A stretch of 64,000 nucleotides of DNA, from NCBI GenBank assembly GCA_034439715.1, contig JAWXAY010000043.1, positions 1 through 64,000 on the forward strand, in the 5' to 3' direction. Positions 14,443 to 23,762 of the stretch are shown here, piece by piece. Source of the DNA: Pseudomonadota bacterium. Its GTDB lineage: Bacteria > Bdellovibrionota > Bdellovibrionia > Bdellovibrionales > SG-bin7. The notes under the pieces are model-generated. The model searched no databases, was not told the origin of the DNA, and worked only from the letters and a program-made list of their open reading frames with translations. The translations under genes were made by a program, and so were the position numbers. Position 1 is the first letter of the stretch. Each line of letters starts with the position of its first letter.

Positions 14443-14844
14443 CTAAGGGACATCGCCCTCTTTGATCCAACGGTGCATAATAGCTTGACTATATCCGTCC
14501 AAGGTTTCGCCTCTTGGCATTGCGCCAGATTGAATTTCAGTATACCAAGGCGACGCATCGGGATTACCTTTTGTATATTGCCCAGAGATTCCTTCAACCC
14601 CACCACCAATTGAGCCAGATCCGGCAAAGTGACAAATAAAGCATTGGGTGTCATTGATAGTTTTTGCTGAGGCGTTAACCTGGGCTATAGTCAAAAGGGC
14701 TACCTCAGAAGAAAAGTCACCACTGCCATCGTGTTGGGGAGTCATAAAGTCAGCACAGTTTTGGAATAATCCCACTGGTAAAAGTAAAAGGACAATACTT
14801 GCCAAAATTCTCTGAGCTTTTGCCATGGATGGCCCCCATATCAC
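14443..14844 (-). CDS. Small monoheme c-type cytochrome, probable lipoprotein
   Basis: Signal ending LFQNC; CFICH; GNPDAS...GAMP...WIKEG; alternative start ATG 14826. Confidence 0.7.
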   Translation of the reverse strand: MIWGPSMAKAQRILASIVLLLLPVGLFQNCADFMTPQHDGSGDFSSEVALLTIAQVNASAKTINDTQCFICHFAGSGSIGGGVEGISGQYTKGNPDASPWYTEIQSGAMPRGETLDGYSQAIMHRWIKEGDVP

Positions 14845-15009: not shown

Positions 15010-16587
15010 ATGATTTTCACCCTCCTTTTAAGTTTTTTTATTCATTACTCACCCCCGGTTCAGGCCGAGCCCTGGGTATCAAATCGCTTCGCCCAAAACT
15101 GTTCCGCCTGCCATTCGCCCAATCGCAACAACGTGCCATTACTAGAAAGGCGTTGCACCCTGTCCTGCCAGGGATGCCACGTAAATCCAAATGGGGGGGG
15201 TGTCAGAAATCGTTATGGCGCTTGGAACCAAAATCGGTTTTTGCGCTCTTTGGCTTGGCCAAAAATTGTTCCCGACTATAAGCAGCCAGCACCTGTAGAG
15301 GAACAGCTTTATTACATAGCCCCTGAAAAGAGGGAGGCCGACAAAAAACAAAAAAAGAAAGAGGCGCTCGCCAAGATTAAAGATAGAAAAAATAAAAAAG
15401 ATGAACCTAAAAGCGATAAAAATAAAAAATTTGTTAAAGGGAAATTTAAAAACTACCGTAAACAAGATGACGACGACGATAAGGGTCCTGATGCCGTGAA
15501 TGCGCGAAAAGCGGCTGCTGTAGGGCTGCCTCTCGTTACGACTAATAACTTAGATATACCCGAAGAGAAGTACCGGGACTATAGAGACTGGCGTTTTACT
15601 CCCGACAAAGAGGGTTTCATGAAGCGCTTGACGGTCAATGATCCTTACCGAGAAGAAATTAATATGCGTACTTACATGAGCGGTGATTTCCGCTACATGA
15701 TGTTTAAGCAATCAGGCGACAGTGTGCCATACAGAACTTGGCGTCCCTTTTTGATGTCGGTTGATCTTGGGGCAAGACTGAGACCTATAAGACGCTATCT
15801 TTCTTTTGTCGCTGAAACCAGATGGCTTGGTAACCCTGATGATCTCGATTACGAATATACGTTGGGTAATCCTATGACTCGTTCGTTTTATATTCTGGTC
15901 GATGAAATACCAGGAAATACCTATTTTATGGCAGGCCTGTACCGTCCGCTCTTTGGCAACTACACTCCTGATCACACGGCGCTCGCGCAAGAAATGGCAG
16001 AGGTCGGAGAAACGACACGCATGAAAGCGATTTCAATAGGGACTGCACCTAACGTGCCCTTTCTATACGTACATTATATTCTACCCGAGGATGACCTCGC
16101 GAAGGACCAAAGCAAGGGCACAATTATAAATTTAGGCGGGCGCTTTGTGACAAAAGGGCTATCAGGTATGCTTTCACTTTGGAATACTACCAAGCCTCTC
16201 AACGTCGCAAGCCCTGATGTTCGTATTGGCAAAAAAATGACATCGTTCACATTAGGAGCCTATGTGAAAAACATTGTCGTCAATGCGGAAATTCTACGAA
16301 TTGAGAGAGAATTTGCTCTCGGTCAAAAAGATGCCGGAGTTGTTTACACCACAGAGTTAAAATACCGCTTTTGGCGCGAAAACTATTTACTTTTTAATTA
16401 CGCCGCCTCAAATATTGCTAGAAATTATAAAGAAGGAGACACGAACCAAATGATGATTGGGGCAAAATCTTTTTTGTTCTCTGGCCTCGAGCTTGAGTTT
16501 GTTTATAAAACCGATAATAATAATCTAGCTTCGGGTACAGCACAAAGCTACAGCACTTTGCAAATGCAAGCTCACATGTTTTTTTAG
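15010..16587 (+). CDS. Diheme cytochrome c fused to a probable outer-membrane beta-barrel
   Basis: Signal peptide; CSACH and CQGCH; C-terminal half of alternating beta strands ending QAHMFF. Confidence 0.7.
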   Translation: MIFTLLLSFFIHYSPPVQAEPWVSNRFAQNCSACHSPNRNNVPLLERRCTLSCQGCHVNPNGGGVRNRYGAWNQNRFLRSLAWPKIVPDYKQPAPVEEQLYYIAPEKREADKKQKKKEALAKIKDRKNKKDEPKSDKNKKFVKGKFKNYRKQDDDDDKGPDAVNARKAAAVGLPLVTTNNLDIPEEKYRDYRDWRFTPDKEGFMKRLTVNDPYREEINMRTYMSGDFRYMMFKQSGDSVPYRTWRPFLMSVDLGARLRPIRRYLSFVAETRWLGNPDDLDYEYTLGNPMTRSFYILVDEIPGNTYFMAGLYRPLFGNYTPDHTALAQEMAEVGETTRMKAISIGTAPNVPFLYVHYILPEDDLAKDQSKGTIINLGGRFVTKGLSGMLSLWNTTKPLNVASPDVRIGKKMTSFTLGAYVKNIVVNAEILRIEREFALGQKDAGVVYTTELKYRFWRENYLLFNYAASNIARNYKEGDTNQMMIGAKSFLFSGLELEFVYKTDNNNLASGTAQSYSTLQMQAHMFF

Positions 16588-20675: not shown

Positions 20676-20690
20676 TAAAGTTCTAACAAG

Positions 20691-20712
20691 TTCCACATGT
20701 GTTTCACATGAT
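20691..20712 (+). promoter_or_regulatory. Putative PHO box (11-bp-period direct repeat) upstream of pstS
   Basis: TTCCACATG (20691) and TTTCACATG (20702), 11 bp apart. Confidence 0.45.
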
Positions 20713-20750
20713 TCATGGGCACACTTTGTAAAACAACAAAGGAGATTTCG

Positions 20751-21653
20751 ATGTTAAGAATGCTGACCCTCATGGTCCTTTCATTACTCTTTTTCCAAAT
20801 GGCCCAAGCTGAAGTCGTTATACATATAGATGGCTCAAGTACAGTTTTTCCGATAACCGAAGCAGTTGCTGAAGAGTTTGGAATTAAAAATCCAAAAACA
20901 AAGATAACAGTAGGTGTCTCTGGAACCGGCGGCGGATTTAAAAAATTCTGTAATGGCGAAATTGATATCAATGATGCCAGTCGGTTAATCAAAACTTTGG
21001 AAAGCGCTGATTGCCGGAAGAATAAAATAAGCTACGTAGAAATGCCTGTTGCTTATGATGGACTTTCTGTTGTCGTTAATTCACAAAACACTTGGGTAAA
21101 CAGTTTAACCGTTGCCGAGTTAAAAAAAATCTGGGAACCAGATAGCAAAGTTAAAACCTGGAAAGACGTCAGATCCACTTGGCCCGACAGAAAAATTATT
21201 CTCTATGGCCCCGGCACAGATTCTGGAACCTTTGACTACTTTACCGAAGTGGTAAACGGCAAGGCTCAAGCAAGTCGTTCGGACTTTACAAAAAGTGAGG
21301 ACGACAACGTTTTGGTTCAAGGTATCGTTGGAGACAAAGATGCCATGGGCTATTTTGGTCACGCTTACTACGAGGCTAACAAAACAAAGCTCAAAGTTGT
21401 GCCCATTCAAGCAGAAGGTGGTAAAGCGATTACACCTACAACTGAGACAATAGCAAATGGCACCTACAAACCACTTTCTCGCATGATCTATATCTATGTG
21501 AGTGTGGCTGCGGGTAAAAAGAAAGAGGTCAGCAGTTTTATTGATTTCTACATGAAGAATGCCGGCGCTTTAGTTAAAGACGTAGGATACATTTCTTTGG
21601 AAAATAAAAAATACGAAACGGCGCTCAGCGAATTTAACAAAAGAATAAAATAG
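20751..21653 (+). CDS. pstS: Phosphate ABC transporter substrate-binding protein
   Basis: IDGSSTVFP, SGTGGGFKKF, GTDSGTFDYF, SEDDN, YKPLSR; AGGAG RBS before ATG 20751. Confidence 0.92.
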   Translation: MLRMLTLMVLSLLFFQMAQAEVVIHIDGSSTVFPITEAVAEEFGIKNPKTKITVGVSGTGGGFKKFCNGEIDINDASRLIKTLESADCRKNKISYVEMPVAYDGLSVVVNSQNTWVNSLTVAELKKIWEPDSKVKTWKDVRSTWPDRKIILYGPGTDSGTFDYFTEVVNGKAQASRSDFTKSEDDNVLVQGIVGDKDAMGYFGHAYYEANKTKLKVVPIQAEGGKAITPTTETIANGTYKPLSRMIYIYVSVAAGKKKEVSSFIDFYMKNAGALVKDVGYISLENKKYETALSEFNKRIK

Positions 21654-21675
21654 GAACACCATTGGAGAAAAGAAA

Positions 21676-22020
21676 ATGAAAGTTATTAAAGTTTTATTTA
21701 CTTTAGGTTTTTTAGTTAGCCTCGGATGCGCCAAAGACGGTATTCCAATATTGGGCCTTGACGGTGACGGTAAGGTGAGTGAGTTTTTTATAGGAGAGAA
21801 AGATTTTAAGGAAAATATGACCGGGCTTATAGATTCGGTCAATAAGTCCACGATTAAAGTGTTAGAGGAGAAAGAAGCCAAACCTTTTATGCTAAGAACA
21901 GTTGTTGTCGGTGTCGGATTAAAATTTGAAGCTGGCTTTGGTCCGTTTGCTAAAGCAAGTGCTGAGCCAAAAGTGAGATTTGTTTTTTCAAACGTCGCTA
22001 AAGACGTTCCGATGCCCTAA
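21676..22020 (+). CDS. Hypothetical lipoprotein with one helix + beta-hairpin module
   Basis: GGAG RBS; lipobox SLGC; FMLRTVVVGVGLKFEAGFGPFAKASAEPKVRFVF. Confidence 0.75.
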   Translation: MKVIKVLFTLGFLVSLGCAKDGIPILGLDGDGKVSEFFIGEKDFKENMTGLIDSVNKSTIKVLEEKEAKPFMLRTVVVGVGLKFEAGFGPFAKASAEPKVRFVFSNVAKDVPMP

Positions 22021-22025
22021 CTAAA

Positions 22026-23324
22026 ATGAAGGAGAATATGATGAAAATATTATTAATAGTTCTTATGTCTCAGGTTTGGCTAGCAGCGGATGCGCAGGCT
22101 ACTCTGACGGGTTATGTGCCCAGCTCTTGGTATGTCCTAGATCAGGGGCCCAGCCTTATCGAAGATGGTGATTTGGTAAAATTCGAAAGTACTCTACAAA
22201 AAATATTTAAAAGCCAAAGCGATGCTCTCGAGGGTTCGAACTCAGGACTTTCAGAAAAAATCAGCGCTGAAAAAAAACCCAAAGATTGGGTGCCTTGGCG
22301 CCTACACTCTTACATTACAGAATTGGCGTTGAGTGCCTCAGGCACCATAGGCGTTTTGGGAATTGGTGGTACAGCGTACAGCCAAATTTATTGGCAGAAA
22401 AAGGAAGCCACAGAAAATGTCAACACTGATGAAAACCAACCCATTGAGAGCTTTTCCGGGCTGACTTTTGCCTTTGATGGAAGCATGGGTCCCGAAAAAT
22501 GGGATTTTGAAATTGCGAGAATTACTAATGCGGTGCTGTCCCTCGGTCGTATTGAGGATGAAAAGAATTTTAGTAAAAATCTGAAAACTGAAATACTTAA
22601 ATTTAAAGAACGAGCTAATGCTGTCAGTTTTCACAATGAAAGTTCGAGCTTTTGGGTTTCACGCTATCGCCTAGATCTTAATATAGGAGCCTCAGGCAAT
22701 GTGAGTTTTGGTACAGCTGGTGGTGACGTCAACTTAAGACTTGAATGGTACCGAGCCAAACAAAAAACACCCGGTTTTGTTTCGCGAGAATTAACTGCTG
22801 AGAGCGAAAAAATCAGAGATTTTATTCTCACACTAGCTAGTGACCTGTCGACCTCTCTCGACGACCAAACTATTTTGCCAGGGAATTTTGTGGTTAACGA
22901 GTTTCGTGTGGGCTTAGGCATTGGTTTAAAGGGGGATGCAGGTATAGCAAAAATTGAAGGTAAAATGATTGGACACATTTACTTTAGCCGAAAAATTTCG
23001 AAGAAAAGTTTTGTTAATAGTGATTTATATCTCACAAAAACCACCCCAGCCTCGCGTAACATAAAAATTATTGAGGACTCTAATGGTTTTATGGGCGTGA
23101 GCGATACCTTTGAAGTAGATCGGGAAATCTTTAAGGATGGCCTCAAAAAGGCATTAAAGATCAGTTCTTTTTTAACTCGAATTTCAGGTAGTAGCCAAAG
23201 TGACAAATGGGCCATTTCAAAAGCCAAGGTTGGCTTCGACATGTCTCTTAAGGGTGACATAGCTATCGCTGCTATTACTGGTACTGTGGCAACTGAATTT
23301 GTATTAACAAATCTTAACTTTTAA
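22026..23324 (+). CDS. Secreted hypothetical protein with four helix + beta-hairpin modules
   Basis: Signal peptide ending AQA (start likely 22038/22041 after AAGGAG); four 33-aa Gly-rich hairpins. Confidence 0.8.
   Translation: MKENMMKILLIVLMSQVWLAADAQATLTGYVPSSWYVLDQGPSLIEDGDLVKFESTLQKIFKSQSDALEGSNSGLSEKISAEKKPKDWVPWRLHSYITELALSASGTIGVLGIGGTAYSQIYWQKKEATENVNTDENQPIESFSGLTFAFDGSMGPEKWDFEIARITNAVLSLGRIEDEKNFSKNLKTEILKFKERANAVSFHNESSSFWVSRYRLDLNIGASGNVSFGTAGGDVNLRLEWYRAKQKTPGFVSRELTAESEKIRDFILTLASDLSTSLDDQTILPGNFVVNEFRVGLGIGLKGDAGIAKIEGKMIGHIYFSRKISKKSFVNSDLYLTKTTPASRNIKIIEDSNGFMGVSDTFEVDREIFKDGLKKALKISSFLTRISGSSQSDKWAISKAKVGFDMSLKGDIAIAAITGTVATEFVLTNLNF
22296..23306 (+). repeat. Four protein-level 33-aa repeats (22296-22394, 22650-22748, 22887-22985, 23208-23306)
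   Basis: WRLHSYITELALSASGTIGVLGIGGTAYSQIYW / FWVSRYRLDLNIGASGNVSFGTAGGDVNLRLEW / FVVNEFRVGLGIGLKGDAGIAKIEGKMIGHIYF / WAISKAKVGFDMSLKGDIAIAAITGTVATEFVL. Confidence 0.75.
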
Positions 23325-23336
23325 GCGGGAGAAAAG

Positions 23337-23657
23337 ATGACGAAAACTTTAATTGTAGTTTTAAGCCTAATATTTGGGGCACAAAGCTGGGCGGGCACTG
23401 GTTCTTATTCTGAGCTTAATATGGATAAGTTTAGTAATTTCTTAAGAGATAATATTAACTCAGCCGAGTCCGCTCTTAACGAAAATTTGCTTGAAGGTGA
23501 GTCAGATGAGATGAATTACTTTAGGCGCTTTATGGTGAGACTTAAGGGCCGTTTTGGCATTGAGGTGCCTTGGATTGCGAGCTTCACCATTAACCCCGAA
23601 GTAGAATTGGTATTTATTCGCGAATACCCCGAAGGATGGGAAACATATAAACCCTAA
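23337..23657 (+). CDS. Secreted hypothetical protein with one helix + beta-hairpin module
   Basis: GGGAG RBS; signal ending SWA; NYFRRFMVRLKGRFGIEVPWIASFTINPEVELVF. Confidence 0.75.
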   Translation: MTKTLIVVLSLIFGAQSWAGTGSYSELNMDKFSNFLRDNINSAESALNENLLEGESDEMNYFRRFMVRLKGRFGIEVPWIASFTINPEVELVFIREYPEGWETYKP

Positions 23658-23762
23658 TAATGTAATGCGTTAATTGCGATTGGGCCTCTTACCTTATTCT
23701 TGCTCTCCGATATTTAAAAGTGTAAATCCCTAAAGGTTAGAGGTCTGTTTTTTGGAGGATTC

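Follow-up and report, generated by a model that had tools for sequence, protein, structure and literature searches.

The closest described relatives of the system analysed here are the Pepco proteins (PF24393), together with Trypco1 (PF19493) and Trypco2, the latter two having been defined by a neighbouring trypsin (Kaur et al., PMC7159879). Pepco proteins form pre-assembled barrels of 9-10 subunits, are encoded beside a sensor-fused protease, and become toxic upon cleavage of their tail (10.1101/2025.11.14.688446). Their toxicity needs the amphipathic helix, and they were purified as a pre-formed barrel; the pore itself was inferred from toxicity, two-dimensional cryo-electron microscopy and models, the passages on liposome assays concern EACC1 only, and the main text of that report contains none of the words 'signal peptide', 'secreted' or 'periplasm' (10.1101/2025.11.14.688446). 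Previous descriptions of barrels of this type present them as protease-gated defence toxins that act inside the producing cell. Here, we analysed three adjacent genes, A, B and C, in the first 64,000 nucleotides of contig JAWXAY010000043.1 from a Bdellovibrionota genome (hereafter the window). Their exported products carry six modules of a helix plus a long hairpin, one in A, four in B and one in C (Table 1), and very probably build one heteromeric barrel together.

An earlier reading of the window, to which we refer as the original prediction, had described six amphipathic helices, each followed by an alternating hairpin of 33-34 residues usually bounded by aromatics. All six quoted helices are present in the translations of A, B and C. 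Hairpin length is 34 residues in A and C and 33 in B, the latter as seen in 150 aligned B sequences. The B hairpins have a near-invariant Trp or Phe at both ends and a strict alternation of hydrophobic and polar residues, one face of the hairpin being large-hydrophobic and the other polar in the same alignment. When compared as single sequences, modules B2, B3 and B4 gave pairwise z scores of 4.0-6.4 against shuffles, and A and C reached only up to 3.0 against the B modules, while profile comparison linked A to C (probability 96, E-value 4e-9) and A to B1 (probability 89, E-value 2e-6). A profile comparison of C with B was discarded as proof of module homology, as the B alignment contains fused C parts. 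By these sequence measures, the homology among the modules is above chance, as had been proposed. AlphaFold2 models showed four long hairpins in B (predicted local distance difference test, pLDDT, 82; predicted template modelling score, pTM, 0.83) and a beta-beta-alpha-beta-beta arrangement of short hairpin, helix and long hairpin in A (pLDDT 80, pTM 0.45).

The A, B and C proteins of the window do not match PF24393. Of 29 B homologues, 12 scored above the Pfam cut-off for Pepco (27 bits, whole-protein sums over repeats; best E-value 1.3e-14), and 23/30 matched it at E-values up to 1. Neither the 67 A homologues nor the 24 C homologues matched Pepco, and a single A homologue (1/67) matched Trypco1, with an E-value of 0.36. 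The B profile, run against 251 genomes of another phylum, had as its only match (E-value 6e-7) a 138-residue protein scoring 47.8 bits on PF24393, and the A profile aligned to this same canonical Pepco over 63 columns (probability 88, E-value 3e-6). Based on these alignments, the modules of A, B and C are homologues of Pepco, and the suggested kinship with the Pepco and Trypco domains was borne out. The 138-residue Pepco (L137:1333-1749) has a single module and no signal peptide, and its gene lies directly 3' of a membrane protein gene, with no protease among the open reading frames (ORFs) within 1.5 kb. We assume that this membrane protein resembles a Ca2+/H+ antiporter.

Two defining features of Pepco systems are missing from the A-B-C system, namely a linked trypsin- or caspase-like protease and a small single-module protein without an export signal. 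The absence of an adjacent protease, already noted in the original prediction, was also found in the homologous operons: none of 199 flanking proteins (150/152 plus 49/63 candidates, from the nearest one or two genes per side) matched the trypsin, caspase or subtilase families, and eight of them are peptidases of seven other, unrelated families. In two related genomes, a secreted protein that looks HtrA/trypsin-like by eye is encoded three or four genes from the operon (L039:4197-5246 and L050:6215-7261). Export was examined with a crude signal-peptide heuristic, which was positive for 41/42 A, 40/42 B and 32/32 C proteins and for 183/500 neighbours, in agreement with the proposed secretion of all three proteins.

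The expectation that the three genes travel together also held. The 42 operons collected from 41 long stretches all have A and B; C is a gene of its own in 32 of them, forms a fusion with B in 7 and was undetected in 3. A further 24 stretches yielded 17 A-B-C operons, one with B and C fused, five cut by contig ends and one fragment, so that the order A-B-C is kept across operons; no triple fusion held among 177 proteins. One operon appears to be broken, its B copy ending after 311 residues with C undetected (L058:8009-8944), and the same genome has a second, intact copy. The B profile matched 527 representatives at 50% identity among 1.84 billion sequences (E-value up to 0.001; 369 at 1e-30), and was found in 35/401 genomes of the phylum (the window genome included), 12/301 of the order and 16/127 of another class, these samples overlapping. 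The distribution is patchy, with three or more matches in several genomes. The homologues carry source names such as Bdellovibrionaceae, Bdellovibrionales, Oligoflexia and Bdellovibrionota, with one 'Deltaproteobacteria' and one 'Epsilonproteobacteria' label; outside the phylum, coverage consisted of the 251 genomes mentioned above and a handful of source names. Plasmids and phages gave no match with one query each, and pattern scans of viral, genome and metagenome contigs, a nearly blind method, gave one spurious match and one true locus. The window's own genome, which is 95.7% complete, yielded neither a paralogue nor a Pepco or Trypco1 protein.

The arrangement of the hairpins is indicated in part by covariation in 191 B sequences. 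Numbering the strands b1 to b8, this recovered the four hairpins and, in addition, the pairs b3-b6 (mean z 2.07), b5-b8 (1.36) and, weakly, b2-b7 (1.13-1.15), all in the same register and in agreement with helix couplings H3-H4 and H1-H4. The pairs of a sequential meander were weaker (b2-b3 0.81, b4-b5 0.65, b6-b7 1.04). A single-chain up-down meander in B, of the kind found in porins that depend on the beta-barrel assembly machinery (BAM), was therefore rejected in favour of b3-b6, b5-b8 and b2-b7, and the first idea that the ring order equals the gene order was ruled out by the same B covariation. A C-terminal Phe is present in 78/191 B sequences. The pairings leave b1 and b4 as free edges, and therefore pairing of b4 with C strand 1 was predicted; in 57 paired operons, this combination of B2 strand 2 with C strand 1 came out at the top of 36 cells (2.05). 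A complex model of B, C and A, with A as partner, gave an interaction score (ipSAE, interaction prediction score from aligned errors) of 0.85 versus 0.06 for the best control, the mark used being reached by 116/157 solved and 2/215 mismatched pairs, counts that apply only roughly to a three-chain job with its own alignments. The runs agreed in at least 82% of contacts, and the partner pLDDT was at least 73. In this model, A strand 2 is antiparallel to B strand 1, A strand 1 meets C strand 2, and A contacts B1 and C along whole strands, plus B residues 205-206, 374 and 392-393. As judged from the contact list, the latter are contacts of A to B2 and B4, and fit a closed ring. The predicted ring runs A>B1>B4>B3>B2>C>A, with each strand 2 pairing in one and the same register with strand 1 of the next module, and would have 12 strands at a 1:1:1 stoichiometry (2+8+2). 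Following the stoichiometry of Pepco, rings with 9-10 modules (B2AC or BC dimers) were also considered; the pairings found call for equal numbers of A, B and C. The proposal that hairpins of several chains form one barrel is thus supported, as a prediction, by both the complex model and covariation. None of the three contrary outcomes named beforehand (no module homology, hairpins packed as soluble globular folds, no co-occurrence) was observed.

Table 1. Positions of the A-B-C genes, their long hairpins and the upstream pstS gene in the window
Feature	Position	Strand	Description
Gene A	21676..22020	+	114 aa; probable lipoprotein signal (Cys18), short N-terminal hairpin, amphipathic helix, one long hairpin, Pro-containing tail
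A hairpin F71-F104	21886..21987	+	Predicted: strand 1 with C strand 2, strand 2 with B hairpin 1 strand 1
Gene B	22026..23324	+	432 aa (likely start 22038/22041); signal peptide, PxxW motif, four helix+hairpin modules
B hairpin 1, mature W66-W98	22296..22394	+	Predicted ring place between A and B4
B hairpin 2, mature 184-216	22650..22748	+	Conserved inward R/D/E residues; predicted ring place between B3 and C
B hairpin 3, mature F263-F295	22887..22985	+	Predicted ring place between B4 and B2
B hairpin 4, mature 370-402	23208..23306	+	Predicted ring place between B1 and B3
Gene C	23337..23657	+	106 aa; signal peptide, helix, one hairpin, PxGWxxYxP tail; in some genomes fused to the end of B
C hairpin, residues 60-93	23514..23615	+	Predicted to close the ring between B2 and A
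pstS (TIGR02136 subfamily)	20751..21653	+	Likely start 20751, longest ORF from 20715; 22 bp upstream of A

The position of the helices relative to this barrel was approached in the same manner. Covariation couples hydrophobic helix residues to the central part of the hydrophobic face in the hairpin of the same module (z>3.5 in 3.3-4.2% of 240 pairs, versus 0.3-1.1% for adjacent or far modules at the same level), whereas the hairpin tips and distal outward positions, which are also hydrophobic, showed no clear helix coupling above the controls. The alignment is shallow, which makes single pairs uncertain, but the order of the helix 2 pairs is the one expected from the geometry. The arrangement that fits best is a barrel wrapped in its own helices, with the hydrophobic tips left bare, which is either a pre-pore or a ring that never spans a membrane. 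The anchor-bearing N-termini precede the helix ends nearest to the tips, so that the tips would face the producer's own membrane. An arginine-rich, anion-selective lumen was considered and not borne out by the lumen residues.

The reading that we favour, giving it slightly less than an even chance, is that A-B-C is a domesticated Pepco fold that acts as a self-assembling, self-inserting channel for small solutes in the outer membrane of the producer. A, B and C would be exported via Sec and assemble 1:1:1 in the periplasm into a closed, 12-stranded, helix-jacketed pre-pore, its base and middle covered on the outside by the amphipathic helices, its hydrophobic hairpin tips bare, and its lumen lined by charge-balanced R/K and D/E residues. 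Tethering would be provided by a lipid anchor, borne by A or by B in roughly half of the operons. The barrel would then dock tip-first on the producer's own outer membrane and insert without BAM while the helices lift onto the membrane surface, after which small solutes could enter passively when the linked uptake operon, here that for phosphate, is on. If it is a channel, a toxin fold would have been turned into a porin, a small BAM-independent pore that would constitute a new class of outer-membrane channels if transport were shown. The complete scenario is more tentative, and we hold it to be somewhat doubtful: a pore toxin fold from phage defence that underwent sixfold duplication, was divided among three exported chains and was turned by domestication into a heterotrimeric 2+8+2-strand outer-membrane channel with permuted order, helix-jacketed pre-assembly and BAM-free insertion, replacing ordinary porins in phosphate, bicarbonate and iron uptake operons.

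The link with uptake comes from the genomic context. In the window, the pstS-A-B-C segment (20676-23762) interrupts the pair ffh-rpsP, two genes that sit side by side in a genome of the same family (G283) and in one of the same order (G286), and its pstS lies apart from the pstC genes of the own genome (contigs C5 and C28). In the genome that harbours the sister of the window B (G401; support 0.935 in a tree of 62 B sequences, 33% identity), the arrangement is pho-pst-phoU-A-B-C on one strand, and its PstS is the best match to the window PstS among the ten genomes queried (63%). In a different subclade (G248), a pstS of another subfamily is located 10 bp before A. Other arrangements are carbonic anhydrase-SulP-A-B-C (G404), carbonic anhydrase alone preceding the operon, and OprB-A-B-C-FeoA-FeoB. 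In two genomes of the same family (G283 and G404), a matching pstS is followed by a 261-residue OmpG-like barrel (L076:2394-3179 and L135), and one of the two also has A-B-C elsewhere. This barrel has no Pfam match, was not found in the window genome, and is a candidate phosphate porin in its own right. When 61 operons were tallied, with five left out (four close duplicates and one fragment), uptake-related genes made up 11/55 of the same-strand neighbours versus 3/60 of the opposite-strand neighbours (Fisher p 0.02). Overall, the context weakly favours a channel in the producer over a toxin.

Several observations weigh against the channel. The labels in the context tally were set by hand, post hoc, after the pattern had been seen; after merging kin, the difference was 7/37 versus 2/45 groups (p 0.07), and 51/61 operons have no uptake-related neighbour. 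Judging by the PstS and B comparisons, the phosphate links of the window and G401 share ancestry, yet they outlasted deep divergence. The hydrophobic face of the hairpins may be buried by the helices and need not meet lipid; the alternating pattern is no proof of a membrane span, because the helices covary with this outer face. Of the outer-membrane channel or pore-forming toxin that had been proposed, the barrel is predicted here as well, and it may or may not span a membrane. The lumen is charge balanced, with about 14 K/R and 13 D/E residues. As to the ring itself, the covariation of A with B1 (0.71) and of C with A (0.74) was within background in the 57 paired operons, so that both pairings come from the model, and a 2:2:2 stoichiometry, also conceivable, would give 24 strands. 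A lipobox is absent from both A and B in 21/42 operons according to a loose pattern; it was found on A only in 8, on B only in 12 and on both in 1, and a mutually exclusive occurrence on A and B was not significant (p 0.23). Finally, the patchy occurrence and the presence of more than one copy in some genomes would suit a conflict system as well.

That last point leads to the alternative that survives best, which we nevertheless consider unlikely: the same heteromeric barrel could be a secreted or surface-displayed antibacterial pore toxin, whose jacketed pre-pore enters the membrane of prey or competing cells, possibly once a target-cell protease has trimmed it, in the manner of the pairs of cholesterol-dependent cytolysin-like proteins (CDCLs) of Bacteroidota. 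CDCL operons consist of two or three adjacent lipoprotein genes, are activated by target proteases, and in some cases have no immunity gene (PMC11169675). Kinship to Pepco, a toxic barrel (10.1101/2025.11.14.688446), points in the same direction, as do the patchy distribution with three or more matches in several genomes, the unstable neighbourhood, the insertion between ffh and rpsP, and the presumed predatory lifestyle of the producers. However, there is no receptor-binding domain and no recurrent immunity-like or protease gene among the flanking genes, the operon sits at the end of uptake operons, and the plasmid and phage queries were empty. Tails beyond the last strand are variable or absent (40/67 A proteins have a Pro near the end), and a fixed 12-strand ring with a conserved salt-bridged lumen would make a poor lytic pore. 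If it is a toxin, it would be an undescribed weapon of a predatory phylum.

Also improbable, and to us somewhat more so, is that the barrel never spans a bilayer and is a soluble periplasmic or tip-anchored monotopic two-layer ring with its helices permanently on the sheet. It would then act as a tunnel, as a scaffold or as a carrier of ligands. The helix-strand couplings are consistent with such a ring (157-195, 165-214, 168-191, 172-189, 354-379 and 352-396), and so are the small Gly/Ala residues on the outer face, the lack of a lipobox in half of the operons, and the weak fold matches of B to two-layer alpha/beta structures, among them tunnelling-fold enzymes and domains of ribosomal S3 (Z no higher than 4.7, root-mean-square deviation (rmsd) 4-8). 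The hydrophobic tips and distal outward positions without helix coupling argue against it, as does the precedent of Pepco, which is also a pre-formed barrel and yet toxic, with its amphipathic helix required (10.1101/2025.11.14.688446). A latent periplasmic suicide or defence pore, an exported Pepco counterpart that kills or stalls its own cell upon a phage, predator or stress-protease trigger, would fit the ancestry and defence role of Pepco (10.1101/2025.11.14.688446) and the patchy, mobile-looking distribution, but is highly improbable given that the 199 flanking proteins include no sensor, protease or defence-island neighbours and that PADLOC gave no recurrent match in 30 B sequences.

Searches for solved or named relatives contributed little. 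The window proteins belong to no family in Pfam or NCBIfam when searched singly, a word search returned one homologue, and no solved relatives were found, a match to JUBO2 (E-value 0.17) being rejected as it covers the helix only. The ESM Atlas gave only sub-threshold matches (0.81, template modelling (TM) score under 0.5). Fold searches with B gave nothing convincing in the PDB (E-value 0.02 or worse; best Z 5.3), and TM scores were under 0.3 for the top rows of a viral structure library; the best match of B to a 12-stranded barrel was NalP (Z 3.6, rmsd 6.1, 112 residues aligned). For A, Foldseek found none, and the top matches elsewhere were COMMD domains, over residues 1-52 only, the N-terminal hairpin and helix (window 21742-21870); these are weak (Z 4.0, rmsd 4.2, 52 aligned). 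A permuted strand order could itself lower fold-match scores, and poor matches are no proof of a new fold.

At the locus itself, the tight spacing that had been noted is evident from gaps of 5 bp between A and B and 12 bp between B and C. The strong ribosome-binding sites hold for A and C, each preceded by a GGAG motif; that of B suits an ATG at 22038 or 22041 and not at 22026. Because of this, B is probably 427-428 residues long, and its database copy begins at M6. A is probably a lipoprotein, as had been read: its lipobox VSLGC matches a loose Prosite-type pattern but not the strict one, and the pattern is present in only 9/42 A homologues. The pstS gene is probably co-transcribed with A-B-C; no terminator-like site was found on the + strand between pstS and A, and no promoter or terminator signals above shuffles at the locus. 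The GC content of the pstS-A-B-C segment is similar to its surroundings. The identical sequence, with zero differing letters, occurs in contigs of four other runs, in which no population variant without the insertion was seen, contigs being able to show presence only; no RNA run was listed among those with the sequence. Among the homologous operons, no neighbour family extends beyond small groups of loci, except generic ABC ATPases and kinases. One operon clade (L039:6475-7635, L041, L043 and L095) is tied to a glutamate-cysteine-ligase-like (GCS2/YbdK) gene and often to a PepSY_TM gene. At another locus (L136:6756-7685), outside the context tally, a gene for a PF03601 membrane protein, presumably of a putative sulfate-exporter family, lies 65 bp past C on the same strand. 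Upstream in the window, a 525-residue secreted protein (15010-16587) has two N-terminal CxxCH motifs and a C-terminal half that resembles a barrel; it is encoded divergently from a small CxxCH lipoprotein (14443-14844), and its cytochrome c matches are sub-threshold only.

In the searched literature, which largely leaves subscription journals uncovered, we found no description of an exported, multi-module or heteromeric Pepco, nor of any other system with this layout, in line with the original prediction. The family is large and unnamed. Among known 12-stranded barrels are TolC, the trimeric autotransporter anchors and NanC/KdgM, the first two of which are made from three chains, and TolC also alternates helices and hairpins. 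However, TolC and the autotransporter anchors are homotrimers with four strands per chain, and NanC/KdgM are single-chain meanders, all BAM-dependent, whereas the predicted A-B-C ring has 2+8+2 strands in a reversed and permuted order. The CDCL toxins of Bacteroidota share with A-B-C an operon of two or three exported, related pore subunits, large and small, in some cases without an immunity gene, but they have the CDC/MACPF fold, form giant pores of 25-30 subunits, are activated by proteases, and have exclusively signal peptidase II (SpII) lipoproteins as subunits (PMC11169675). No CDC/MACPF domain was matched in Pfam by 30 B, 67 A and 24 C proteins, and chains of about 100 residues are too short for this domain. 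CsgG is likewise an exported lipoprotein, which forms a composite barrel in the producer's outer membrane from hairpins contributed by several chains, an arrangement also proposed for A-B-C, but it is a homo-nonamer with 36 strands, 4 nm wide and dedicated to curli secretion (PMC4594475). A lipoprotein signal in all members, as in the CsgG type, is not seen here, given the 21/42 operons without a lipobox by the loose pattern, and the suggested relation to CsgG-like families found no backing, with no Pfam match and no CsgG in the fold-search lists for B and A, which do not suffice to exclude a relation. Pepco remains the nearest relative, having the homologous module of a helix and a long Gly/Ala-rich hairpin, and an oligomeric, pre-assembled barrel with a hydrophobic outside, a charged lumen and amphipathic helices, as predicted for the A-B-C ring; the predicted helix-jacketed state could explain the solubility of pre-formed Pepco barrels before activation. 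Whereas Pepco is a single 117-residue module that forms homo-9/10-mers, is encoded next to a sensor-fused serine or cysteine protease and activated by tail cleavage, with no signal peptide mentioned in the main text describing it, A-B-C distributes six modules over three exported chains (1+4+1), with a predicted heteromeric, non-sequential ring, no linked protease and no conserved tail. If true, an exported heteromeric barrel of this kind, protease-free and with its modules in a fixed order, would represent a novel construction principle for membrane barrels.

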